64,000 nucleotides of DNA, taken from contig JAPCJK010000001.1 of NCBI GenBank assembly GCA_027886975.1, positions 12,892 through 76,891 of the forward strand, written 5' to 3'. A program made the position numbers and the translations under genes. Origin of the DNA: Nitrososphaerota archaeon (GTDB lineage Archaea > Thermoproteota > Nitrososphaeria > Nitrososphaerales > Gagatemarchaeaceae). The notes below the pieces were generated by a model that was given only the letters and a program-made list of their open reading frames with translations, made no database searches and was not told where the DNA came from. Below are positions 2,685-27,120 of the stretch, in pieces (position 1 is the first letter of the stretch; each line of letters begins with the position of its first letter).

Positions 2685-3614
2685 ATGATGACCCGAGGCC
2701 AACTGCGACGCATACTGAATGAACTGAATGGGCAGCCGGAGGCATTGGAGAGGTTCGCCCGATCGAAGGTCCCGAAGGCACCACGTGGTTCCATTTTCGT
2801 AGGTGCGGGAGACTCCTATGCTGCGGCGCTTGCCGGGTTCTACGCGTCCAAAGGAAGCTGCACAGCGATCGACCCTTACGCTCTGGCCAGCGTCCCTGAA
2901 ATTGCGAAGGGACGGGAAGTGTTTTTCATTTCTGTATCTGGAAGGACTTCTTCCAACCTCCTCGCAGCGAGAAAGGTCAGTAAACTTGCGAAGATGACAA
3001 CAGCACTGACCGCCGTTCGTGAAAGCAAGCTAGCCGCGCTGACCGACCAGACTGTGGCACTTCCGATGACCTATGTCCCCAAAACGCCAGGTATGCTCTC
3101 TTTCAGCCTCTCGCTGCTCGCGGTCCTCAGCATAGTGAAGGTGGAGGCCTCCTGTGACTTCGAAAAGGCGTTTGAAAGTGCTCAATCGGACCGCAAGAAT
3201 ATTTCATTCGGAGGAGGGACCACCTACTTCCTTGGTAACTCCCTGGCCTATCCAGTGGCCCTCTACGCGGCGGCAAAGACTTACGAATTTCTGGGGGCCA
3301 AGGCGCACGCCGAGTTGGTGGAGGAATTCAGCCACTTGGAGTTGTTCTCGCTGAGGAGATCCGACTCGGTCAACCTGTTTGGATGCTTCGACCCCTCAAG
3401 AATGTCAAGGAAGCTATCGAGAGCACTAGCCGCCCATGGCTACGACTCCCACCAAATCGCAGCCCGCGGCAATTCAGACTTAGAGAGGATCTTCCATTCG
3501 GTCTTCGCATCCCAGCTAGCGGTCCTACACCGGGCTGAGGCTGCAGGGTTGAACGAACCCAAGTTCCTTTCCGCCGGCGACAGGTTGGACGTCAGTGATG
3601 CGATGATTTACTAA
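2685..3614 (+). CDS. SIS (sugar isomerase/phosphosugar-binding) domain protein
   Basis: 309 aa. 'FVGAGDSYAAA' and 'VFFISVSGRTSSNL' are SIS-domain signatures. A TATA-like 'ttaata' lies about 25 nt upstream of the ATG. Confidence 0.7.
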   Translation: MMTRGQLRRILNELNGQPEALERFARSKVPKAPRGSIFVGAGDSYAAALAGFYASKGSCTAIDPYALASVPEIAKGREVFFISVSGRTSSNLLAARKVSKLAKMTTALTAVRESKLAALTDQTVALPMTYVPKTPGMLSFSLSLLAVLSIVKVEASCDFEKAFESAQSDRKNISFGGGTTYFLGNSLAYPVALYAAAKTYEFLGAKAHAELVEEFSHLELFSLRRSDSVNLFGCFDPSRMSRKLSRALAAHGYDSHQIAARGNSDLERIFHSVFASQLAVLHRAEAAGLNEPKFLSAGDRLDVSDAMIY

Positions 3615-3806
3615 TCACAAAGTCGTTGAAGTCATATCTTCCAGCATAGCTGGCATTGCCAGGAAATTGCAGGCCAGTGGACCCGGGCCCGGGGGTAGCC
3701 CGCTGCGTCCCCTGAAGTTGATGACCATTTTCAACCTGGTTCATTGCCGCCTATGCGATGAACTTCCTGGTGCTGTACTACAGCAAGTAGTAGGGTTTCA
3801 CAGGGC

Positions 3807-5195
3807 CTAGGTTTTCTGCTTCCTCATCACGGCGACCAGCTCGCTGACGACCCTCTTCGCGTCGCCGAACACCATCATTGTGTTGGGGTTGTAGAAGAGG
3901 TCGTTCTCTACACCTGAAAAGCCCGGATTCATCGAGCGCTTGACGAAGACGACCGTCTTTGCCTTGTCCACGTCTAGGATCGGCATCCCATAGAGGGGCG
4001 AGTCGGTCTTGGTGCGGGCCGCTGGATTGGTGACGTCGTTGGCACCGACCACAATCACGACATCCGTCTCCGGAAACAACGGGTTGATTCTCTCCATCTC
4101 CCAAAGCTGGTCGTAGGGCACCTGCGCTTCGGCGAGGAGGACGTTCATGTGCCCCGGCATCCGGCCCGCGACAGGATGTATCGCGTATTTCACGTCGACT
4201 CCTCTGGCCTCGAGCACATCGGCCAGCTCCTTGACGACGTGCTGGGCCTGGGCGACCGCCATCCCGTAACCGGGGGCAAACACGACCGAGCGAGCGTTCC
4301 CAAGGACGGTCGCCACATCTTCGACCGTGTACGCCTGGGCTGTCTTCCCTGGCTCTCCCGGTTTGACTGTGGATTCGCTCCTGACTGCGCCCACTCCGCC
4401 GAACAATATATTGACGAAGGAGCGGTTCATCGCTTGGCTCATTATCAGGGCTAGAATCAGCCCAGAAGAGCCGTCCAGCGACCCCGCCACAATCAGCAGT
4501 TTGTTGTTGAGAACGAAACCCAACGCTGCCGCAGAAAGTCCGGCGAACGAGTTGAGTATTGCAATGACCGTTGGCATGTCCGCACCGCCTATCGCTACGA
4601 CCAGCTGGAATCCGAACAGGAGTGCGAGGGCTGCCATCACAGGAAGAATGATCTGTTGATCCTGGTAGGCAACTAGGAGCACCCCTGAGGCAACCGCAGC
4701 CCCCAGGGTCGTGAGGCTGACAACAGTTCTTCCCCGGAACAAGATCGGCCTTCCACTGACAATCCCCTGCAATTTCGCGAATGCCATTATGCTGCCCGTG
4801 AAAGTTAGGAAACCGAGTATCATTTCGGCGGATAGGACTGACATACTGAACGTGTCAATCCCAGGTTGGCCCTGGTAATACTCCGCCACCCCAACAAGCG
4901 CCACTGCCAGCGACCCGAAGGCGTGCGACATCGCGGTCCTTTGAGGGATTCCGGTCATGGCCACCTTGAGACCGATAGGCGCTCCGACTACCGATCCGAT
5001 GACAACGCCGCCAACAAGCAGGTCGACGCGCCCCACGTGAAACGCGTCGAGGGTGGCGACCACGGCCAAGCCCATCCCAGCGACCGCACAGAAGTTGCCA
5101 ACGCGGGAAGTCCTGACTTCGCTCATGAATTTGAGAGAAAGGACGAACAGGACCGCTGACACTATGTAGAGGTACTCGACGATTATGTCAGTCAT
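3807..5195 (-). CDS. pntB: NAD(P) transhydrogenase subunit beta
   Basis: 462 aa, polytopic N-terminal half plus a C-terminal NADP(H) domain ('GYGMAVAQAQH', 'HPVAGRMPGHMNVLLAEA', 'VIVVGANDVTNP'). The start ATG overlaps the pntAB stop (ATGA). Confidence 0.92.
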   Translation of the reverse strand: MTDIIVEYLYIVSAVLFVLSLKFMSEVRTSRVGNFCAVAGMGLAVVATLDAFHVGRVDLLVGGVVIGSVVGAPIGLKVAMTGIPQRTAMSHAFGSLAVALVGVAEYYQGQPGIDTFSMSVLSAEMILGFLTFTGSIMAFAKLQGIVSGRPILFRGRTVVSLTTLGAAVASGVLLVAYQDQQIILPVMAALALLFGFQLVVAIGGADMPTVIAILNSFAGLSAAALGFVLNNKLLIVAGSLDGSSGLILALIMSQAMNRSFVNILFGGVGAVRSESTVKPGEPGKTAQAYTVEDVATVLGNARSVVFAPGYGMAVAQAQHVVKELADVLEARGVDVKYAIHPVAGRMPGHMNVLLAEAQVPYDQLWEMERINPLFPETDVVIVVGANDVTNPAARTKTDSPLYGMPILDVDKAKTVVFVKRSMNPGFSGVENDLFYNPNTMMVFGDAKRVVSELVAVMRKQKT

Positions 5196-17306: not shown

Positions 17307-20057
17307 TTATTGCTTGATTGTAACGTAGTACATGTACGTCACTCCCTGTGCTGGTACGACTATGATTCCGAAGTTGAGGTTGCCAGAATTATCAATCCAG
17401 GAATAGACGGTGTTCGCCACGCTCCCCGGCCCGTAAGACTGTAGAAGGCTGGCCACTTTGTCCACGGTCTGGCTCGCTCCCGCCGCACTGAGTGATATGC
17501 TAGCCACGTTCACATATACCGTAGGGTTGACGGACGTGGCGTTGACCAGACGGTAGCCCTTCGACGCGATGAGCGCGTCTACCTGATGGACCAATGCCGT
17601 CCTGCTCGGAGTGGCTCCTGTCGTGGAATTGCTGGTTCCGAGGTTGTTGAAGGCAGCCGTGGCGTCGGCGCCCACGCCTACGACCCCTGTGGACGGGTTG
17701 ATTGCAGTCATGAAAGGTAGTTGCGTGACCACCCCGCTCGAGCCTGGGTTAGTGTAGACTGCAACGAAATAGGTGAGCGCTCCCCCGACAGAGTAAAGCA
17801 GGTATGAGCCGAACCTGTTGTTCGGAAGGAGTGTCAGCTGGGTCCGTACCTGCTGGTTGGTGGTGAGCGCGTTCTCCGCCGCCGTGGGGCCGATGATGAG
17901 CGCCGACTGTGAGGGATTCTGATAAAGATAGATTTGCCCGAGTCTGTCTCCGCCGTAGGCTATGTAGAGGGCCCCGAGGTTCTTGCTGACTACCCCTTGG
18001 TACTGGGCGAGCTGCAGGCCCACGAAGTAGGTCTTGTTCCCGACGGCGAATGGAATGTATTGTACGTTGCTGGCGCCAGCTCTTTCGTAGAACTGAGTGC
18101 CCGACCTGAAGATGAACGGGTCGTTCACGTGATAGATGAAGTTGTAGTCCAGCTGTCCAGGCACAGTGGGAGATCCTAGTAACTGCTCGGGGTACCTGAG
18201 CTGGGGGATAAGCCAAGAAGGAGGAGCCTTCCAGGTGCTATAGTAGCCCTGGTAGAACTTCGTGATGAAGTCCGTGCTGTTCACGCCCGTAGGCGATAGA
18301 AGGTTGGACACGGTGTACCCTTGCAAAGAGCCGTCCTGGATGTTGACCAGGACCACGCCGAAGAACCTGAGGTAGGGGCTGTCCGCGAAGCCCGATTGCA
18401 GTGGGTAGTCTATGTAGACCTGGACGGTGTAGTAGAGGTTCTTCCCATCGGACACGATGTATGCTGAGGGGTCCATCGTAAGACCGGGGATCAGCACGTC
18501 CCCGACCCTGGAGAAGATGTTCCTGTTCCACTGCATGTCGATCGGCTGGCCTGAGAAGGCGAAACCGAGCTGTCCCTCTGCGAATGTGAACCACATCGAC
18601 TTCTGCCAGCCGCTCAATGTATAGTCGACTGTTTTGGAATACGAAACGTTCTGAATCTCATTGTACCCGGGGACGTGGACGTAGACGTTTTGATTGAATC
18701 CATCCCCTTCTCCGTAGTAGATGGGAGGCTCTGACCTGATCCCGAAGGCGTTGGTTGGCGGTATCACCGACCCGTTGTGGGTGTTGATTACCAGGACCTT
18801 TGCAGCGTGGGTATAGATTAAATGCTGGCTGATCCAGTCTGCCGACGGGAAGACAGGGGTGGTGGGCGAAACCCAGTACTCCGTGCCGTTGTAGAAGACT
18901 ATCTCCGAGCTGGCAAGGCCCATCCAGTTGTACGCGCCGATTTCTTTCGTGTTCGTGACGGACGCCGCTTGCTGGTCCCATTGCCTGACGAGGTCAAGCG
19001 TCGTCCTGGGGTTGCTTGTTGGAAGGGTGGTGATATTGTTGACGTGGATGCTGTCGAGGCCCGCCGACCATCGGGTCACCGTGATCTGCTTCTGGGTCTG
19101 GGGGTACCATTGGTACGCGAGGAAGTTGTTGTTCCAGTTGAAGTAGTAAAATGCCCCAGCAGCCACCTGGGCTAGGAGGAGTATTGCGAGGAGCACAGCG
19201 AGCCCCTTGAAGATCCTGAGTCTCGTCGCGGTAATGTCCCTCCTAGAGAGAGCAACGATTCCCAGAAGAGAGAGAAGCAGGGCGCTCCAGACGATCCCGT
19301 AGACGTAAGGGGTTGCTATGTTCATCAGCCAGTAGGGAGCGCCCAAGATTGTCTCGAATAGGATAAGCGTAACCAGAGTGAGGAGGTTACCGAGCCAGAC
19401 GCCGCTCCGCCGAGTCGCGAGGTTGGCGAGGAGACGGATGAGGACCCTGAATCCGGCGATCAGGAGAAAAGCGGACAGGATGTAGACAATGACCGCGTAC
19501 TGAACGGTCAGAGTAGGCATTAGTCCGATTAGTCCAGAACCAGACGCCGGGGCCAACGGAAGGGTGAAGACCCTCGGCACATCGCTCCAGCTCCCCAAGC
19601 CCATGGACATCATCTGAACCGGGTTCATGATGGGGCCGAGGAATGGGAAGGCACCGAAGGTCGCGAAGGTGTAGAAGCCTATCGCCCACTTGACTGTCTG
19701 CCAAAGGCCCCAAAGCCAGATGTTCATCTTCTCGCTGGGCCTGTTCTCCCCCTCTGCCTCGTAGGGCCGCATAAGTCTGTAGACCACGGTGCCGAGCTTA
19801 CGGAGGTCGCTCCGCCCTGGTCGAGGATTGACAAGAAGGAGAGAGAACAGAGCAGCTGCGATGAAGGTGTTTTCGTGGTAGAATGTTATGCCGAACCAAT
19901 CGAGGCCGGCCTTCGCCGAAAATACGGACTCGGCGATGGCCCATCGGAGGAAGACCCAGGCGAGTGCCAGGACGACCGCGACAGCCAGAAGTGCGACGAC
20001 CAGGACGGCGAGCCATTTGGAGAGCCTTAGACGGTCGTTTCCCGCTTCTGATTCCAT
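17307..20057 (-). CDS. UPF0182 family large membrane protein
   Basis: 916 aa. About 7 N-terminal TM helices and a large extracytoplasmic domain. 'DWISQHLIYTH', 'EPPIYYGEG', 'LRYPEQLL' and 'SYLLYSVGGALTYFVAVY' parallel the UPF0182 motifs 'DWINRHTVYTH', 'PRIYFG', 'HLRYPEDLF' and 'LLYVEPVY' (recalled from memory). Confidence 0.68.
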   Translation of the reverse strand: MESEAGNDRLRLSKWLAVLVVALLAVAVVLALAWVFLRWAIAESVFSAKAGLDWFGITFYHENTFIAAALFSLLLVNPRPGRSDLRKLGTVVYRLMRPYEAEGENRPSEKMNIWLWGLWQTVKWAIGFYTFATFGAFPFLGPIMNPVQMMSMGLGSWSDVPRVFTLPLAPASGSGLIGLMPTLTVQYAVIVYILSAFLLIAGFRVLIRLLANLATRRSGVWLGNLLTLVTLILFETILGAPYWLMNIATPYVYGIVWSALLLSLLGIVALSRRDITATRLRIFKGLAVLLAILLLAQVAAGAFYYFNWNNNFLAYQWYPQTQKQITVTRWSAGLDSIHVNNITTLPTSNPRTTLDLVRQWDQQAASVTNTKEIGAYNWMGLASSEIVFYNGTEYWVSPTTPVFPSADWISQHLIYTHAAKVLVINTHNGSVIPPTNAFGIRSEPPIYYGEGDGFNQNVYVHVPGYNEIQNVSYSKTVDYTLSGWQKSMWFTFAEGQLGFAFSGQPIDMQWNRNIFSRVGDVLIPGLTMDPSAYIVSDGKNLYYTVQVYIDYPLQSGFADSPYLRFFGVVLVNIQDGSLQGYTVSNLLSPTGVNSTDFITKFYQGYYSTWKAPPSWLIPQLRYPEQLLGSPTVPGQLDYNFIYHVNDPFIFRSGTQFYERAGASNVQYIPFAVGNKTYFVGLQLAQYQGVVSKNLGALYIAYGGDRLGQIYLYQNPSQSALIIGPTAAENALTTNQQVRTQLTLLPNNRFGSYLLYSVGGALTYFVAVYTNPGSSGVVTQLPFMTAINPSTGVVGVGADATAAFNNLGTSNSTTGATPSRTALVHQVDALIASKGYRLVNATSVNPTVYVNVASISLSAAGASQTVDKVASLLQSYGPGSVANTVYSWIDNSGNLNFGIIVVPAQGVTYMYYVTIKQ

Positions 20058-20366: not shown

Positions 20367-22505
20367 ATGAAGCATTCGGAATCGCCTCCGCCAATATCCA
20401 AGGATAAGGCACGCCGACTGGGAGTTGGTGGCCGCTCAAGGCGCTGGATGTATCTTGTCTCTTTTCTTTTGGTAGGTTCCGTGGTTGCGATGGGAGGCGC
20501 GTATGGCGTCCTCAGTCACACTGGATCTTCAACATCAACAACTTCATCTTTTACAAACACGTCTTCATCTTCAATCAGTACTTCGATTAGTACCTCGATT
20601 AGCTCTTCGTCGGGTCTTCAAGCAACCTCGGTAAGACTGGTCTGTTCTCCGTCGCCTCAGATTGTGGGTGCTGGTTCCGATTGCATTGCCACGGTCAGCA
20701 ACTCTCCGGATGCTAGTCACGGGGCCGCCCCCTCCGGTAAGGTCGGGTTCACCAGTAGGTCAGAAGGGGGGTACGGAGCGATTACGTGTGCTCCTACAAC
20801 CGGTACTTTGGTCTGCAGCACGTTGTACACCCCTACGCTTGGTGCCGAAGGCAATCACACCTTGACCGCAATCTACGCCGGTGACTCGGGTCATCGTGGG
20901 AGCTCGGCAAGTATCGCCCTACAAGTCTCTAAGCGCCCGTCCTCCATCAACGTAAACTGCTCCCCCGAGGCCGTGCCCGTGAACACCAGGACCACGTGCA
21001 CTGCCATCGTCTCAGACACGGGTGGCGGAACTACTTTGGTGCCGTCGGGGGCCGTAGAATTCGCTGGGACCTCTTCGGGCAGCTTCAGCGTATCAGGATG
21101 TGCGCTCTCAGGAGGTTCTTGCTCTGTTGATTTTTTCCCGTTTCCTGGCAAGGAGGGACCAATTTCACTCTCCGTCGCCTATGGCGGCGACTCAGACCAC
21201 GTCCCAAGCAAGGGGCTAGGGACCAATGCTCTTACCGCGGTCGCGAGGCCGACGAGTGCCTCGGTCTCGTGTGTCCCTTCAATTGCTACGAGCGGATCTC
21301 AGGTATCGTGTAGAGCCACCGTCGAAGATTCTTTGAGCTCTGGCGTCCCGTTGGTACCGAAGGGAGATTTCAACTTCAGCACTTCTGGTAGCGGGAACTT
21401 TAGTCCGGCAACATGCTCGCTGGCACCTCTGACCTCACACAGCGCGGCCTGCCTAGTTCACTACGCCCCGGCTCTCGGCAACACAGCCTCCTCCCAACGA
21501 ATCGGGGGCAAGTACGGGGGAGATCCAGACCATTCCTCAGCATCTGCCACCACTTTCACCTTGCAGGTGAGGGCTCGGGCTGCCTCTCTATCGCTATCCT
21601 GCGCGAGCGCCTTGACGACGGTGAACACTCCTCTCAGCTGCACCGCCACGGTCTCGGATGCTTCCGGAACGTCTCCTCAAGCCCCAACCGGGGGAGTCAA
21701 CTTCGCGTCGACTGGTGCGGGGAGCTTCAGCCCAGCCACGTGCACTGTCCACTCTGGGACCTGCTCGTCCACCTATACCCCCCGGGCTGGAAGTGAGGGG
21801 AGCGCCACGATTACGTCAGTATACTCAGGGGACCCGAACTATGGGCCTAGCTCGGCGTCAATCGTAATCAGCGTGGATCAACGACTCAGCTCCACGACTC
21901 TCGATTGCGCCCCGTCCACGGTTCCAGTCAACGCTCCCACAATCTGCACCGCGACCGTTTCGGACTCCACCGGGGTGGGGACTTCGATAACCCCGTCGGG
22001 GCATGTGGAGTTCAGCTCCCGAGGCGGGTCCTTTGGCTCCGGAGATACTTGTACTCTCTCTGCGGGCGCATGTTCGGTGAAGTTTACTCCATCTCCAGGG
22101 AGCGAGGGAGCCTTATCTGTGGGCGCAAGCTACTCGGGAGACGTCGACCACTACGGCGGGACCGCAGCGCCAGTGGGCGTGACTGCGACAACGAGATCTG
22201 TAACCGTTTCAGTTGTCTGCGCTCCATCGTCAATCCTCCCCGCACAGAGCACAACCTGTACCGTGACTGTAACCGACTCCGACGGCGGGTCCCCCATCAT
22301 GCCGACAGGCAAAGTTCATTTCTCCGCAAACGTGAGCGGAACCTTTGCGCCCTCCACGGATTGCATTCTCTCAGGCGGGACCTGCTCAGTGTCCTACAGC
22401 ACCCTAGCCATCGGCACCCCGACCACTGTAGCCATCACAGCGACCTATGCGGGAGACACAGACCACAGTGGAGACTCGGATGTGGCGTACGTCCAGTTTG
22501 CTTAA
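20367..22505 (+). CDS. Surface protein: N-terminal anchor, Ser/Thr stalk, six tandem Ig-like (Big_3_5-type) domains
   Basis: 712 aa. Each repeat has the pattern C.P....V......C.ATV.D......P.G.V.F.....G.F....C.L..G.C.V.(F/Y).P..G.EG......Y.GD..H. Confidence 0.78.
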   Translation: MKHSESPPPISKDKARRLGVGGRSRRWMYLVSFLLVGSVVAMGGAYGVLSHTGSSTSTTSSFTNTSSSSISTSISTSISSSSGLQATSVRLVCSPSPQIVGAGSDCIATVSNSPDASHGAAPSGKVGFTSRSEGGYGAITCAPTTGTLVCSTLYTPTLGAEGNHTLTAIYAGDSGHRGSSASIALQVSKRPSSINVNCSPEAVPVNTRTTCTAIVSDTGGGTTLVPSGAVEFAGTSSGSFSVSGCALSGGSCSVDFFPFPGKEGPISLSVAYGGDSDHVPSKGLGTNALTAVARPTSASVSCVPSIATSGSQVSCRATVEDSLSSGVPLVPKGDFNFSTSGSGNFSPATCSLAPLTSHSAACLVHYAPALGNTASSQRIGGKYGGDPDHSSASATTFTLQVRARAASLSLSCASALTTVNTPLSCTATVSDASGTSPQAPTGGVNFASTGAGSFSPATCTVHSGTCSSTYTPRAGSEGSATITSVYSGDPNYGPSSASIVISVDQRLSSTTLDCAPSTVPVNAPTICTATVSDSTGVGTSITPSGHVEFSSRGGSFGSGDTCTLSAGACSVKFTPSPGSEGALSVGASYSGDVDHYGGTAAPVGVTATTRSVTVSVVCAPSSILPAQSTTCTVTVTDSDGGSPIMPTGKVHFSANVSGTFAPSTDCILSGGTCSVSYSTLAIGTPTTVAITATYAGDTDHSGDSDVAYVQFA
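20628..22502 (+). repeat. Six tandem coding repeats of about 100-106 codons each (Ig-like domains)
   Basis: Protein-level periodicity from residue 88 to the C-terminus. The repeats have diverged at the nucleotide level. The Ser/Thr stalk also holds a short 12-nt tandem, AGTAC(T/C)TCGATT x2, near 20577-20600. Confidence 0.75.
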
Positions 22506-22651
22506 TCTCGCTGAAGACCTTCGGACTTCGGCGGGAACGCATCTTCAAAAAAAATCGCGCGTCCCAATTCCACAACGCAATTAGCAACTGAGGCTCAAAC
22601 GAGCCGCGTCGTGCTTATAACGAGAAACACGCGGCCTGAGCCGACAGAGAT

Positions 22652-23056
22652 ATGCCCGGGAAAGGAACCAAAGCAGACCCCTGGGTCCTGAAGACTCCTC
22701 CTGGAACGTCGGAGTTCAAGGCATACCGAGACGAATCCTTGAATCCCCAAGCCCTGGTCTGCTGGGTCGGAAAGACACAGCTCAGCTACGACCTCCGCTG
22801 TTTGAACGACCTCCATGCCGCCCTCAAGAAACATGGCGACTGGATGGAACTCGGGAGTGCCGACGAGCAAAAGCCCGCCCGGGAGGGGACCGTCGAGGCC
22901 TGGGGGCGGTCGGCGAAGAATCCTGTGGGGGGCTGGTATGGTCTGAAGAAAGGCCTGCGCGGGAGGTTCGCCATGTACGTGCCTCCGGTCATGGAGGCCC
23001 TGAAGCTCGCAGAAGTCGAGCACAACCCGAAGAACAACCGGATGCGCGCTCTCTGA
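22652..23056 (+). CDS. Conserved protein of unknown function ('GGWYGLKKG.RGRF' family)
   Basis: 134 aa. 'DPWVLKTPPGTSEF..YRDE', 'GTVEAWGRSAKNPVGGWYGLKKGLRGRFAMYVPP' and 'NNRMRA' resemble a widespread bacterial DUF recalled from memory. It has its own TATA-like 'cttataa' about 32 nt upstream. Confidence 0.6.
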   Translation: MPGKGTKADPWVLKTPPGTSEFKAYRDESLNPQALVCWVGKTQLSYDLRCLNDLHAALKKHGDWMELGSADEQKPAREGTVEAWGRSAKNPVGGWYGLKKGLRGRFAMYVPPVMEALKLAEVEHNPKNNRMRAL

Positions 23057-23093
23057 AGTAAGACTGGCCGGACTTGCGAAATGCGGAACAACG

Positions 23094-23101
23094 TTAATTA
23101 A
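23094..23101 (+). promoter_or_regulatory. TATA-like box (ttaattaa) for the Ku-ligase-PolX operon
   Basis: A/T octamer about 30 nt upstream of TTG 23127. No SD-like purine tract lies between them, which fits a leaderless or short-leader archaeal promoter. Confidence 0.4.
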
Positions 23102-23126
23102 CTTACAGGCAGGTTTTGGACAGAAA

Positions 23127-23972
23127 TTGCCCAAGGGAGACATCTTCTCTGAGGTTGAGAAGCAGGCCGACAGCGCGGCCGTCTCAAAGGCTTCGTGGCG
23201 AGGGGTCCTCAGCCTGGACATCCCGACCCTGGGCCTCGGGGCCGTTGAGTACCACTTGAGAGCCGCGAAGGCCCACGGGGACCTCCAGCCTGTGAAGGTG
23301 ACGAAGTTGGACAAGAAGACGGGAAAGGAGGTCGTCAGCAGGGAGGTTCCGAGGATTTACAGGTACAAGGAGGGCCCTGCCGGGGAGAGGCTTGACATGC
23401 AGGAGGTAACTCCCGAGGAGGCAAAGAAGTTCGTCAGGTACAAGGGGGACTTTCCGATCACAGTTAAGACAGAGAAGAGGTACTTCCTGAAATACGAATT
23501 GGAATTCGAGGGGAAATTTATCGAGATCCCGCTGAGTCAGACATACGACAAGCAGGAGGGAGAGGAGGTCGAGCCCTTCGACAGGACAAAGAGGATCGAA
23601 GTAGAGAAGGATGGGTTTGTGCCGTTGGAGAGGGTTTCAGAGTACAAGTTCAAGGAAGTCTATCAGCTCGCCCCAGACACCGACAAAAAGGTCGGGGAGA
23701 CCGTTTCGAGAGTTACGCAGCTGGCCAGGTACCTGACGGAGAAACAGATGGCTCTCGTGGCGTTCTTCTCCTGGGGAAGGGGGTACAACTTCTACACGAG
23801 CGTCGTCTATCCCTACGAGAGGAAGGACGGACGCCTCTGGCTTCTGATGGGCATGAGTGAGGGAATACTGAAGCTCGACGATGCGTGGGCCCTTATTGAG
23901 GAAAAGGGTTCCGCCAGGCTGCCGGCCGTCCCAGTAGCTAAGAGGAAGGCCAAAGCCGTCATCTCGAAGTAG
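23127..23972 (+). CDS. ku: Ku-like DNA end-binding protein (highly divergent)
   Basis: 281 aa. 'SWRGVLSLDIPTLGLGAVEYHL' compares with bacterial Ku 'WKGSISFGLVNIPVKLY'. Later 'RIEVEKDGFVPLERVSEYKFKEVYQLAPD' and 'LARYLTEKQMALVAFFSWGRG...' follow the Ku core order 'I.I..FV....I.P.Y....Y.L.P' and 'AY.LL...L.....A.A....R'. The C-terminal tail is basic. It is directly coupled to a DNA ligase gene. Confidence 0.55.
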   Translation: MPKGDIFSEVEKQADSAAVSKASWRGVLSLDIPTLGLGAVEYHLRAAKAHGDLQPVKVTKLDKKTGKEVVSREVPRIYRYKEGPAGERLDMQEVTPEEAKKFVRYKGDFPITVKTEKRYFLKYELEFEGKFIEIPLSQTYDKQEGEEVEPFDRTKRIEVEKDGFVPLERVSEYKFKEVYQLAPDTDKKVGETVSRVTQLARYLTEKQMALVAFFSWGRGYNFYTSVVYPYERKDGRLWLLMGMSEGILKLDDAWALIEEKGSARLPAVPVAKRKAKAVISK

Positions 23973-23974
23973 AG

Positions 23975-24808
23975 ATGAGCGACGAGCTCCCGAACTACGT
24001 TCAGGATAACTATTCGAAGGCTGTCAAAATCGACCTGGGGACATGGCTCCTTGCCAACCCGCTCCCCGCTCTGTGCGAGCCGAAATTCGACGGGATCAGA
24101 GTGTTTCTCTTCAAGAGCGGGGACAAGCTTGTACTGTCGAGCAAGCACGGCGGGGTCTACACGCCGAAAGGGAGTCCAACTGTCTTCTCCAGGGTTCCCG
24201 AGTTCTTGCATGCACCCCACAAGATGATCCTCGACGGGGAATATGTAGCGAGAGAATCCAAAGGGTTGTTCCTTTTCGACGTCCTTCAGGTCGACAACAG
24301 GGACCTCAGGGCAAAGACCCTGACTGAAAGGAAGAAGGTCCTGAAAGAGATACTGAAGGGAACGGGGCTAGAGGTTCCCTACACCCTTGCCAAAACAACC
24401 GACAGCATCATCGCTGTACGCAACGAGATGGTGGAGAAAGGCAGGGAAGGAATCGTCGTCAAGAATCCCCTGTCGAAGTACGGCCAGAGGAACTCGTGGC
24501 TCAAACTGAAGCGTTTCGACACGGTCGATGTCTTCGTGATGAAGACGGTGGAGACTCAAGAGATGAAGAGGACTGGGATTGCAAGGTCATGGTCTGTGGG
24601 TGTCTATGACGATAACGGTCAAGTGGTGGAGCTGGGCGACGTAGGGTCCATGGTGGAAAGGGTAGACCCGAGACAGGTGAAGAAGGGGTCAGTCATCGAG
24701 GTGAGGTTCCAGGAGCTCACGAAGGACAAGAAGCTGCGCGCGCCGTTCATCGTAAGGATAAGGCATGACAAGACGCCGGACGAATGCCTGTACTCTCAGT
24801 TCGGATAG
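23975..24808 (+). CDS. Minimal ATP-dependent DNA ligase (adenylation + OB domains only)
   Basis: 277 aa. Motif I 'KFDGIR' (Lys codon 24083-24085), III 'ILDGEYV', IIIa 'LFLFDVL', IV 'EGIVVKN', V 'WLKLKR', VI 'LRAPFIVRIRHDK'. The ATG lies 2 nt after the Ku stop. Confidence 0.88.
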   Translation: MSDELPNYVQDNYSKAVKIDLGTWLLANPLPALCEPKFDGIRVFLFKSGDKLVLSSKHGGVYTPKGSPTVFSRVPEFLHAPHKMILDGEYVARESKGLFLFDVLQVDNRDLRAKTLTERKKVLKEILKGTGLEVPYTLAKTTDSIIAVRNEMVEKGREGIVVKNPLSKYGQRNSWLKLKRFDTVDVFVMKTVETQEMKRTGIARSWSVGVYDDNGQVVELGDVGSMVERVDPRQVKKGSVIEVRFQELTKDKKLRAPFIVRIRHDKTPDECLYSQFG

Positions 24809-24817
24809 GGGATTGAT

Positions 24818-25357
24818 GTGTCATACAAGAAAGACATCAAGCTGGAAGAGGCCGAAAAGATCGGACTAGACTTTCAGGAGAAGACGAAAGACCTCTACAA
24901 GAAATACCTACTCGCAGGAAGTATCAGGAGAAAGCAGCCCATCGTTCACGATATTGACTTCGCCGTGATTCCCAAAGGCATGAGTTTTGGTGCGTGGAAG
25001 GACAAGGTCTCGGAGAGGGTCCAGGAAATCGGAGGGATGGTAGTCACATTCGGCGAAGTCATCTCGAACTTCCGATACCGGGGGGTTCAGGTCAACCTGT
25101 TCATCTGTCTGAGCGACGGCGCCTGGGGAGTAACGCAGATGTGGGCAACAGGGCCGAAGGGTCACACCATTGGGATGACAATCAAGGCGAGAGACAAGGG
25201 ACTAATCATAAACTCCAAAGGGCTCTGGACTAGGGACGAACCGCCTAAGCTGATTCCGACGAGGACGGAGCAAGAAGTCGGAAGGATCCTTGACTGGAAG
25301 TACAAGCCGCCTGAAACGAGGGGAAAAGGCGGGAAACAAAAGCCATCTCCTCTGTGA
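24818..25357 (+). CDS. polX: Mini family-X DNA polymerase / Pol-beta-like nucleotidyltransferase (palm + thumb only)
   Basis: 179 aa, GTG start. 'LLAGSIRRKQPIVHDIDFAVIP' is the GS-x-RR...D-x-D NTase motif. 'WATGPKGHTIGMTIKARDKGLIINSKGLW...IPTRTEQEVGRILDWKYKPPETR' matches the PolX thumb and C-terminus. The size and layout resemble the 174-aa ASFV Pol X. Confidence 0.7.
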   Translation: MSYKKDIKLEEAEKIGLDFQEKTKDLYKKYLLAGSIRRKQPIVHDIDFAVIPKGMSFGAWKDKVSERVQEIGGMVVTFGEVISNFRYRGVQVNLFICLSDGAWGVTQMWATGPKGHTIGMTIKARDKGLIINSKGLWTRDEPPKLIPTRTEQEVGRILDWKYKPPETRGKGGKQKPSPL

Positions 25358-25375: not shown

Positions 25376-26092
25376 TTAATCGGCGTCCAATTTTTCTGCT
25401 AGTCTCTGGGCCAGGACGGCGTTTTCCCCGGTTTCATCGTGGCGGAGATAGACGTAGGTTTCCTCTGAACCCTTGGCAGTCTCGGTTATTTTCGGGACCC
25501 AGGCATCGACTGTCTTCGCATCGTAGAAATCTTTCCTTAGCCTGAAGTAAGCGGTCTTTCCGGTGACCTGGAGGACTGGTTTCATCTCTTCGGTCTCGGC
25601 GATGCAGAACCCCGCCCCATTCGCCTCGAGCAGCTGGTATGTGGAATCCTTGAGCCACGACTCGTGCCTGAATTCGAAAACCCTGTTCTCGATTCCTCCT
25701 GTTGCGCTTAGGAATTCGCCAAGGAGCTTGAGATCAAGCTTCGAGAATGGAGGCAACTGGAACAAGACCGGACCCCGCCTGGGTCCCAGGGAATCTAGCA
25801 CCTTCGACAGTTTCTCGGCTGCTTCCGATGAGCCCTTTCCCAGCTTCAGGATATGAGTTATCAGGCGGGGCGCTTTGAAAGAGAACCTGAACTTCTCGTT
25901 CGTCTTCCCAGACCAACTCTTCACCATGGCCGCGCTGGGTTGAGCGTAGAAGGAGCTGTTGATCTCCACGCTTCCCAGGTGTTGCGAATAGTAGGCTAGA
26001 AACTCGTCGCTCTTTGTGCCCTCGGGGTAGAACTTCCCCTTCCAGCGGGGATAGCTGAAGCCGGAGACCCCCACAAATGTGTTCTTGGTCAA
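25376..26092 (-). CDS. DUF72 (YecE/UPF0759) family protein
   Basis: 238 aa. 'VGVSGFSYPRWKGKFYP', 'LAYYSQHLGSVEINSSFY' and 'FRFSFKAPRLITH' are typical DUF72 motifs. TTG start. Confidence 0.85.
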   Translation of the reverse strand: MTKNTFVGVSGFSYPRWKGKFYPEGTKSDEFLAYYSQHLGSVEINSSFYAQPSAAMVKSWSGKTNEKFRFSFKAPRLITHILKLGKGSSEAAEKLSKVLDSLGPRRGPVLFQLPPFSKLDLKLLGEFLSATGGIENRVFEFRHESWLKDSTYQLLEANGAGFCIAETEEMKPVLQVTGKTAYFRLRKDFYDAKTVDAWVPKITETAKGSEETYVYLRHDETGENAVLAQRLAEKLDAD

Positions 26093-26116: not shown

Positions 26117-26584
26117 CTACCGGTGCTCAGGATTGCCCTTCATCCACATTTTCTCCTCCCTCGTCGGGGTGAGTGGATACTCCACCATCCATAGAAACAT
26201 CCTGGCTGTAGACGGCCCAACGTGCTTGAATTTCTCTTGGAGTTCTTTCTGAAGCCTGACTTCGCCGCCTCCGAAGGAGTCAATGTACCCCTTGATTGAC
26301 CCGAACTCCTTTTCGATGGCGAGGATGGCCTTGGCATTCTCGACTGTCGCCCGGATCTTCTTCTCATTCCTCACGATCCCTTGATTTTTCATGAGCGTTG
26401 CAACATCCCTCTCTGTTAGCCTAGCGACCTTGGCTGGGGAGAATCCGAAGAACGCCTTCTGGAACGCAGGCCATTTGTTTTCGACCATCTTCCAGTTGAG
26501 ACCCGCCGTGAAAATAGCCTTGGACATCCGACCGAAGTAGTCTGCGTCATCCTTGGGCGGAGTGACCTTCCAGGCTGGGGCCAT
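26117..26584 (-). CDS. tag: DNA-3-methyladenine glycosylase I (Tag-like, Adenine_glyco family)
   Basis: 155 aa. 'IFTAGLNWKMVENKWPAFQKAFFGFSPAKVA', 'GIVRNEKKIRATVENA' and 'HVGPSTARMFL' parallel Tag 'QAGLSW..VLKKR..YR..F..FD', 'GIIRHRGKI.A...NA' and 'FVGTT.CYSFM'. It lacks the N-terminal Cys-rich part of E. coli Tag. Confidence 0.72.
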   Translation of the reverse strand: MAPAWKVTPPKDDADYFGRMSKAIFTAGLNWKMVENKWPAFQKAFFGFSPAKVARLTERDVATLMKNQGIVRNEKKIRATVENAKAILAIEKEFGSIKGYIDSFGGGEVRLQKELQEKFKHVGPSTARMFLWMVEYPLTPTREEKMWMKGNPEHR

Positions 26585-26733
26585 AGCAGATTAGACCTTT
26601 GTTCTTCTATTTATTCCATCTTTGACTGGTCGTTGCGATAGCTCCTACGACTTGAATGGTTCTTCTGTCTGGCCCTGCGAAGTATACTTTCATTCCCAGA
26701 CTGAATAAATACCCGGCACCCAAACCCCGGCTT

Positions 26734-27120
26734 ATGGATTCAATAGTCCATTTCGAAATACCTGCAAAAGACGTGAAGAGAGCCTCGACCTTCTACACGA
26801 AGGCGTTCGGCTGGCAGATCACCCAATTCCCGAACTTCGAGTATTGGAGCCTGGTCACCACAGCCTCGGACCAGAATGGCACCCCCCAAACCCCCGGCGC
26901 CATAAACGGCGGAATGGGGAAGAAAGGCACAATGGCACCCAATGCGGTAACCGTGACCATCAGCGTGCCTGACATCGACGCCGCTCTGGCGAATGTGAAG
27001 AAGCTCGGAGGCAAGGTAACTGGGAAGAAGACGCCTGTCGGAGACATGGGCTTCAGTGCCTATTTCGAGGACACCGAAGGCAACAACATCGGCCTCTTCC
27101 AGTCAACAGGACGGATGTAA
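26734..27120 (+). CDS. VOC (glyoxalase/bleomycin-resistance/dioxygenase) family protein
   Basis: Start taken at 'MDSIVHFEIPAKDVKRASTFYTKAFGW'. The C-terminus is 'FEDTEGNNIGLFQ'. A GAATAAATACC box lies about 28 nt upstream. Confidence 0.75.
   Translation: MDSIVHFEIPAKDVKRASTFYTKAFGWQITQFPNFEYWSLVTTASDQNGTPQTPGAINGGMGKKGTMAPNAVTVTISVPDIDAALANVKKLGGKVTGKKTPVGDMGFSAYFEDTEGNNIGLFQSTGRM

Follow-up and report, generated by a model that had tools for sequence, protein, structure and literature searches.

A 64,000-nt window of contig JAPCJK010000001.1 (GCA_027886975.1, forward-strand positions 12,892-76,891; coordinates below are window positions) encodes a minimal DNA polymerase of family X, here called the mini PolX, with asparagine (N93) at the position of the third catalytic aspartate. 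Its gene is the last of a three-gene operon, behind genes for a Ku-like protein and an ATP-dependent DNA ligase, and this D-D-N palm+thumb protein is thus genetically coupled to a ligase and to Ku. We propose that it is a stand-alone minimal X-family polymerase that partners Ku and the ligase in a three-gene module for end joining or gap filling, and that N93 probably ligates metal; we put the probability of this reading at roughly 55%. The operon context is the main clue to the function of the protein, and was absent from a preliminary description of this DNA made from the sequence alone. Feature coordinates are collected in Table 1.

Table 1. Positions of the mini PolX gene, its functional elements and the neighbouring genes in the window
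Feature	Position	Strand	Description	Basis
DUF6855 protein	22652..23056	+	134 aa, 71 bases upstream of Ku	Pfam PF21619, E 6.7e-69
Ku-like DNA-end-binding protein	23127..23972	+	281 aa, first conserved operon gene	Pfam Ku PF02735
Minimal ATP-dependent DNA ligase	23975..24808	+	277 aa, adenylation and OB domains	Pfam, KxDG motif 'PKFDGIR'
Mini PolX	24818..25357	+	GTG start, 179 aa, palm and C-terminal 'thumb' only	
G34-S35-I-R37-R38	24917..24931	+	Triphosphate-binding motif of the Pol beta nucleotidyltransferase fold	Alignment, invariance
H44-D45-I-D47	24947..24958	+	First two catalytic carboxylates after an invariant His	Alignment, invariance
N93 (AAC)	25094..25096	+	Third catalytic Asp position	Single-sequence and profile alignments
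Thumb subdomain, residues 109-168	25142..25321	+	dNTP/template-selecting	Pfam PF14791
C-terminal tail GKGGKQKPSPL	25322..25354	+	Basic, disordered	pLDDT about 60 or lower
DUF72 (YecE-like) protein	25376..26092	-	Convergent neighbour	Pfam PF01904, E 1.5e-53

Several independent comparisons place the protein in family X. Pfam recognises one domain, DNA_pol_B_thumb (E 4.4e-10, 39.7 bits against a cut-off of 25). Single-sequence phmmer searches of the PDB matched Thermus thermophilus PolX (E 6e-6, residues 184-318 of its 575) and African swine fever virus (ASFV) Pol X (E 1e-3, query residues 23-168 on ASFV residues 27-173). With a family profile of 104 relatives the E-values were 3e-38 for Thermus PolX, 1e-26 for ASFV Pol X, 4e-21 for Pol lambda, 2e-18 for Pol mu and 2e-17 for Pol beta. 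The same 104-sequence alignment yielded an AlphaFold2 (AF2) model with a predicted local distance difference test score (pLDDT) of 94.1 and a predicted template modelling score (pTM) of 0.87, which supersedes a poor earlier model from 24 close homologues (pLDDT 68). Foldseek matched the model to the palm+thumb of Pol beta, Pol lambda and Thermus PolX (E ~1e-12, template modelling (TM) scores 0.66-0.77), the best match being Thermus PolX 3AUO (TM 0.77, root-mean-square deviation 2.5 A, 25% identity). In a comparison with a viral library, the model matched giant-virus PolXs and ASFV O174L.

The alignments on Thermus PolX start at residue 154, in the first palm helix, and stop at about residue 320, the end of the thumb, so the protein has no counterpart of the other parts of the full-length enzyme: neither the Pfam scan nor the alignment, which covers Thermus residues 154-323 only, gave any 8-kDa (dRP-lyase), helix-hairpin-helix (HhH) fingers or PHP domain. 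The preliminary description had made the same palm+thumb-only assignment from ASFV motifs, which the phmmer alignment against the PDB proved to be correct; the fold assignment held, and the positions it gave for the 179-aa open reading frame (ORF) and for the D45, D47 and N93 codons agree with a direct reading of the sequence. The family-X motif hG[GS]x(9-13)Dh[DE]h (GS..RR...DxD) is present. The complete D-D-D/E triad is not, the third column being N93, and the NCBIfam PolX equivalog model scores 24 bits against a cut-off of 426. We conclude that the protein is an X-family palm+thumb by fold and motifs that lacks the three-carboxylate triad, and is therefore a non-standard member of the family.

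The placement of N93 follows from the alignments. Phmmer set 'llaGSiRRkqpivhDiDfavi' of the query on 'vavGSLRREEKMLNDVDLLII' of ASFV Pol X, so that GSIRR corresponds to GSLRR (ASFV) and GSARR (Thermus), and HDID to NDVD and GDLD, respectively. Further on, 'VQVNLF' is aligned with ASFV 'YQLDLF' and Thermus 'LQVDLRV', and N93 falls on the catalytic Asp with high posterior confidence in both single-sequence and profile alignments. The AF2 model puts H44-D45-I-D47 at the start of strand 46-52 and N93 in the middle of predicted strand 90-96. We take the N93 column to be that of Pol beta D256 by homology, and the ASFV Pol X triad is presumably D49, D51 and D100 in its own numbering. An altered third catalytic position, as the preliminary description had suggested, is thus borne out, and the register shift that it had entertained runs against two sequence alignments, the profile alignment and the predicted strand, all of which put N93 on the catalytic column.

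It is highly improbable that the alignment misleads and that a true third carboxylate comes from elsewhere (D100 in 'CLSDG', E80 or residue 40), which would make the protein an ordinary three-carboxylate polymerase. An acidic residue is indeed common at positions 100 and 101 in the family, and position 40 covaries with Asn, being E in 52% of Asn-type proteins where Asp-type proteins have K or R; yet none of these three positions is invariant, and the query itself carries Q40 and G101. The Asp of 'CLSDG', pointed out earlier as lying near N93, is present in the query, but its column varies among the homologues (E 79, D 24, others A, P or V), so it is not a conserved ligand. E80 is a conserved loop residue, and it is no compensating change because Asp-type proteins share it. 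The only invariant acidic residues in the family are D45, D47 and E151 of the thumb, and no substitute conserved carboxylate for the third position was found in the 121-sequence alignment and the covariation comparison. D100 and E40 were accordingly rejected as replacement ligands, neither being conserved.

The 121 sequences comprise the query and 120 homologues among the matches listed, which are 72-91% identical to it and whose single named source organism is Thaumarchaeota/Nitrososphaerota. N93 is invariant in 121/121, as are G34, S35, R37, R38, H44, D45 and D47; conservation of the Asn among homologues was a check proposed in the preliminary description. The codon is AAC in 17 and AAT in 2 of 19 sequences (the window and 18 related loci). 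Within this archaeal family the thumb residues TGP, A124, G128, N132, G135, E151, P165 and R168 are also invariant. The gene is under strong purifying selection, with a median ratio of nonsynonymous to synonymous substitution rates (dN/dS) of 0.11, and of 0.07-0.08 against the closest loci.

The Asn state extends well beyond the archaeal family. A profile search of 1.84 billion representative proteins returned 2,666 clusters (50% identity) at E<=1e-3, 280 of them at <=1e-10, and triads were counted in the best 150 of the 2,666, of which 136 cover all three positions. Ninety-two of these best 150 clusters are of mini-PolX size (140-210 aa). The view that such small PolXs are known mainly from ASFV therefore stands for characterised proteins and fails for the family overall. 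The triads are DDD in 65 clusters, DDN in 46, DDE in 8, DEE in 6, DDQ in 5 and other combinations in 6, so that D, E, N or Q, all with oxygen-donor side chains, make up the third residue in 130/136 (96%). G34, S35, R37 and R38 are each kept in 41-46 of the 46 Asn-type and 65-66 of the 66 Asp-type clusters, and GS-RR, DxD, TG[PS], E151, P165 and R168 are equally conserved in the two groups. On a neighbour-joining tree built from simple distances on these short sequences, with the third-position column masked, the Asn state needs 12 changes, whereas shuffled labels average 33 changes and never need fewer than 25. Because of this difference (12 against at least 25), Asn appears to mark a few large, old clades, with the archaeal family inside one of them. 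Position 84 also covaries with Asn (T or N in Asn-type, S, R, Q or E in Asp-type proteins); judging from the predicted hairpin geometry, residue 84 would be a cross-strand neighbour of 93.

Many mini PolXs of the Asn-type clades sit on phage-like contigs. Where the gene context of distant Asn-type relatives was inspected, most representatives lay on 1-5 kb contigs of small unannotated ORFs, and only locus L030 and the fusion protein P0222, described below, were informative. GenBank phages gave only two matches, both Asp-type with an extra N-terminal region. One Asn-type gene ('GMQVNCY') occupies positions 8001-8480 of L028, a 246,684-bp, jumbo-phage-sized IMG/VR contig; the surrounding ORFs gave no informative Pfam matches, and a caspase-domain protein is encoded ~6 kb away.

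Taken together, the invariance of N93 in the family, the intact motifs of the DDN clusters and the Asn clades argue that Asn is a selected feature, unlike the scrambled sites of inactive PolXs. On this sequence evidence, N93 appears to be a fixed, selected state with no sign of decay in a nucleotide-binding site that is otherwise intact. The preliminary description had suggested that the protein might be inactive or structural, which is possible but is not the best reading, as the Asn is invariant and the nucleotide site conserved, in contrast to the decayed triads of inactive PolXs. In its fuller form, this alternative is a dead or near-dead pseudo-polymerase that binds nucleotide-metal and DNA ends and acts as a bridging or alignment scaffold, or as a ligase recruiter, in a Ku-ligase complex. 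We regard it as unlikely, though as the most probable of the alternatives. The third carboxylate is absent, and in Pol beta D256A is the standard polymerase-dead mutant. Polymerases of non-homologous end joining (NHEJ) have structural roles in synapsis, and the conserved basic tail with its terminal aromatic residue resembles a docking motif. Polymerase-inactive prokaryotic PolXs also associate with NHEJ genes more often than canonical ones do (PMC9226535). A scaffold, however, has no obvious need of invariant D45, D47, G34, S35, R37, R38 and Asn, and the presence of D, E, N or Q in 96% of clusters points to a continuing need for an oxygen that faces metal or phosphate. Known inactive PolXs, moreover, have scrambled triads and palm deletions rather than a clean single change.

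The tail deserves mention in its own right. Its pattern RGKGxK....[FW] is conserved, and the final residue is F or W in 98/121 homologues (P0001-P0120 and the query) and L in the window PolX. It resembles a short motif on which Ku, the ligase or a clamp might dock, and a role in partner docking may be suggested from its sequence.

The operon itself is compact: the ligase gene starts 2 bases past the Ku stop, and the mini PolX gene 9 bases past the ligase stop, all on the same strand. Pfam clearly identifies the ligase (DNA_ligase_A_M with E 4.8e-22, and OB/C-terminal domains in addition). Among NCBIfam models NHEJ_ligase_lig fits it best (E 9e-30, 104 bits, under the cut-off of 228), and its PDB matches are archaeal ligases, Lig4 and the ligase of Mycobacterium tuberculosis LigD. 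Ku is very divergent. It matches Pfam over residues 52-238 (E 1.3e-7, 32.1 bits against a cut-off of 25), NCBIfam Ku_bact gives E 1.6e-3, and a PDB sequence search returned no match.

A scan of one genome per species recovered related loci in 19 species genomes, all of them uncultured thaumarchaeal metagenome-assembled genomes (MAGs), of which 18 are labelled Nitrososphaerales, Thaumarchaeota or 'uncultured archaeon' and one Nitrosopumilales. The ligase gene lies directly upstream of the mini PolX gene in 17/17 loci that have upstream DNA, and Ku (83-98% identity) lies upstream of the ligase in 14/15 with enough of it. The remaining locus, L008, belongs to a Nitrososphaerales MAG. There, at 3391-5160, Ku is reduced to a C-terminal remnant and replaced by an insertion with a 264-aa ORF and a 104-aa ORF read as RelE-like. 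The ligase-PolX pair is intact despite the loss of Ku, and from this locus the pair may be able to work without it. Our literature search found no description of a thaumarchaeal module of Ku, ligase and mini PolX.

Other genes around the operon raise a second possibility, namely that the mini PolX fills gaps in base excision repair (BER), as has been proposed for ASFV Pol X and its ligase, with the adjacent 3-methyladenine glycosylase and DUF72 genes as partners. Among small homologues that have been characterised, ASFV Pol X is the closest; a Tag-like 3-methyladenine glycosylase gene (26117-26584, -), the DUF72 gene and a glyoxalase/bleomycin-resistance-like gene (+) lie directly downstream, the first and last of them within 26117-27120; and DUF72 adjoins the module, on either side, in 11/19 related loci. 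Tag, by contrast, adjoins the module only in the window, L001 and L002; L011 has a match that is partial and split. The ligase is adjacent in 17/17 and Ku in 14/15, on the same strand with gaps of 2-9 bases. Ku is not known to act in base excision repair, and the mini PolX lacks a dRP-lyase domain. Because Ku and the ligase, unlike the glycosylase, are conserved as partners, a BER function is less well supported than end joining, and we consider it improbable as an alternative to it. The two roles are not mutually exclusive.

The neighbourhood holds further observations. Only in the window, L001 and L002 do the operon, Tag and the glyoxalase-like gene make up a small cluster related to DNA damage. 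The DUF72 protein could be a candidate end-processing partner; a literature search gave nothing on DUF72 function. DUF6855 accompanies the operon in the window and, among the 19 related loci, in L002 only, which makes it a variable accessory outside the conserved core. In the window its gene sits between that of a large Ig-like-repeat protein (20367-22505, Big_3_5) and Ku. A 916-aa ORF further upstream (17307-20057, -) has no Pfam match at E<=1e-3, and none of the PolX, Ku and DUF6855 proteins has a family in PHROGs. Neither of the signals of horizontal transfer that were sought was found: the operon is not anomalous in composition, and the window contains no tRNA.

Returning to the end-joining reading, we infer that the mini PolX is the nucleotide-adding or gap-filling component of the module. 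Ku would bind broken ends, the mini PolX would then fill short gaps or extend the aligned ends by a few nucleotides, and sealing would fall to the ligase. In polymerases of this family the third carboxylate is a ligand of the catalytic metal and the presumed acceptor of the 3'-OH proton. In the mini PolX, D45 and D47 would keep holding the nucleotide-bound metal, and the amide oxygen of N93 would act as a neutral ligand or as an orienting hydrogen-bond partner at the catalytic-metal/3'-OH site. The expected outcome is a slower, possibly Mn2+-favouring transferase rather than a dead enzyme, and reduced speed would be tolerable where synthesis is limited to one or a few nucleotides. The Asn would trace back to an old clade of Asn-type mini PolXs.

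Several considerations weigh against this proposal. Asp-to-Asn changes at the catalytic-metal sites of other polymerases usually make the enzyme orders of magnitude less active. How N93 is placed with respect to D45 and D47 is deduced from alignment and strand topology only, and the identity of Ku depends on one Pfam match barely over threshold. The operon has no recognisable end-processing nuclease or phosphoesterase; a Pfam scan confined to the operon genes and their immediate neighbours likewise gave no polymerase domain of the archaeo-eukaryotic primase (AEP, LigD POL) type and no phosphoesterase domain. D256A of Pol beta serves as a polymerase-dead control in published work. Our literature search found no D256N-type mutant data for PolX enzymes, no paper on DDN-type PolXs and no biochemical data for any Asn-type PolX.

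Links between mini PolXs and ligases are also seen outside the archaeal operon. P0222, on a phage-like contig (L025), is a 920-aa fusion of an Asn-type mini PolX with an NAD-dependent ligase and a BRCT domain, and on L030 an Asn-type PolX of the query's clade (32% identical) is encoded ~900 bp from a 392-aa ATP-dependent ligase. Three Asp/Glu-type mini PolXs (P0186, P0219 and P0245) are fused to ATP-dependent ligases. These distributions suggest that the ligase link recurs independently. The mini-PolX fusions include a 1069-aa protein that joins an ATP-dependent ligase and a mini PolX to a GIY-YIG nuclease, and a NUDIX fusion with an Asn-type mini PolX is also among the metagenomic fusions (P0186, P0219, P0245, P0222, P0174). 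We tentatively advance a broader reading, possible though short of our preferred one in likelihood: DDN mini PolXs may be a large, old, undescribed clade of active nucleotidyltransferases in which a neutral amide replaces a metal-ligating carboxylate, and may provide Nitrososphaerales with eukaryote-style end joining by Ku, ligase and a family-X polymerase.

The GTG start of the mini PolX gene at 24818 was accepted because of its spacing from the ligase stop, the GGGGA that precedes it and the N-terminus MS[FY]KKD that the protein has in common with its 120 homologues. An ATG at 24816 was rejected as a start, being out of frame and opening a short dead ORF that lacks this N-terminus. D45 is encoded by GAT (24950-24952) and D47 by GAC (24956-24958). 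Antisense ORFs of 85-239 aa (22595-23314, 23813-24220 and 24908-25165, all -) overlap the DUF6855, Ku, ligase and PolX genes; these long ORFs are most likely artefacts of coding sequence with 53-60% G+C and not genes.

A site of three carboxylates and two metals is regarded as a hallmark of polymerase catalysis, and here Asn is the third residue in one third of the sampled PolX clusters and in every member of the archaeal family, with all else preserved. Should the Asn-type proteins prove active, they would provide a natural test of the share of the third carboxylate in metal binding and 3'-OH activation; should they prove inactive, they would be a conserved nucleotide-binding pseudo-polymerase in break repair. 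To our knowledge, Ku-dependent end joining is very rare in archaea, and the prokaryotic systems use primase-type polymerases. A conserved operon of Ku, ligase and PolX in abundant soil nitrifiers (uncultured soil ammonia-oxidising archaea) would be a different solution that parallels eukaryotic NHEJ. The small size of the protein (about 20 kDa) suits structural work and possibly use as a tool.

Among characterised enzymes, ASFV Pol X (O174L; PDB 1JAJ, 5HRB) is most like the mini PolX in architecture, with about 175 aa, a palm and C-terminal subdomain and no 8-kDa or fingers part. Both have GS-RR...DxD, a 'Q-x-[DN]-L-F' strand and TGP, and ASFV Pol X works with a dedicated ligase, as is proposed here for the mini PolX. 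Identity is about 20-25%. The viral enzyme has Asp as its third residue (QLDLF) where the archaeal family has invariant Asn, and it serves viral base excision repair, whereas the mini PolX gene is chromosomal in archaea and in an operon with Ku. The full-length PolXs of bacteria and archaea (Thermus PolX, 3AU2/3AUO; the 'PolX1' of PMC12926913) match the palm+thumb best in both sequence and structure, and Thermus PolX shares the 'QV[DN]L' and 'TG.K.H.I' motifs. They differ in length (about 570 aa), in their 8-kDa, fingers and PHP exonuclease domains and in their DDD triad.

Two other groups of prokaryotic PolXs depart from this standard. Noncanonical full-length PolXs without polymerase activity have scrambled triads (EEK, TQE, DAQ, DAR; 302 variants) and palm deletions (PMC9226535). 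They resemble the mini PolX in having a non-canonical triad and a genomic association with NHEJ genes. Their activity, however, is carried by the PHP exonuclease, whereas the mini PolX has no second catalytic domain; only its third triad residue is altered, and invariantly so, and DDN is not among the abundant triad variants of the noncanonical group (PMC9226535). The 'PolX2' proteins of a 2026 survey (PMC12926913), none of which has been studied experimentally, are prokaryotic and viral PolXs cut down to the polymerase core like the mini PolX, without 8-kDa or PHP domains. They are described as keeping the polymerase active site conserved and as having, at the C-terminus, an additional alpha-helical domain; the archaeal mini PolX lacks this additional domain and has Asn in its active site.

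Known prokaryotic NHEJ (Ku and LigD; in archaea, the Methanocella Ku/Lig/Pol/PE operon) encodes Ku, an ATP-dependent ligase and a polymerase together, as in the window. The polymerase domain of those systems is of AEP type, often with a phosphoesterase, and neither is in the operon described here. The NHEJ genes reported for Nitrososphaerales are bacterial-type Ku and LigD, found together with a full-length PolX (PMC7554672), and that set is distinct from the module of Ku, ligase and mini PolX in the window. Eukaryotic NHEJ (Ku70/80, Lig4 and Pol lambda or mu) differs in that its PolXs have BRCT and 8-kDa domains and a DDD triad, but it resembles the window module in that its polymerase belongs to family X.

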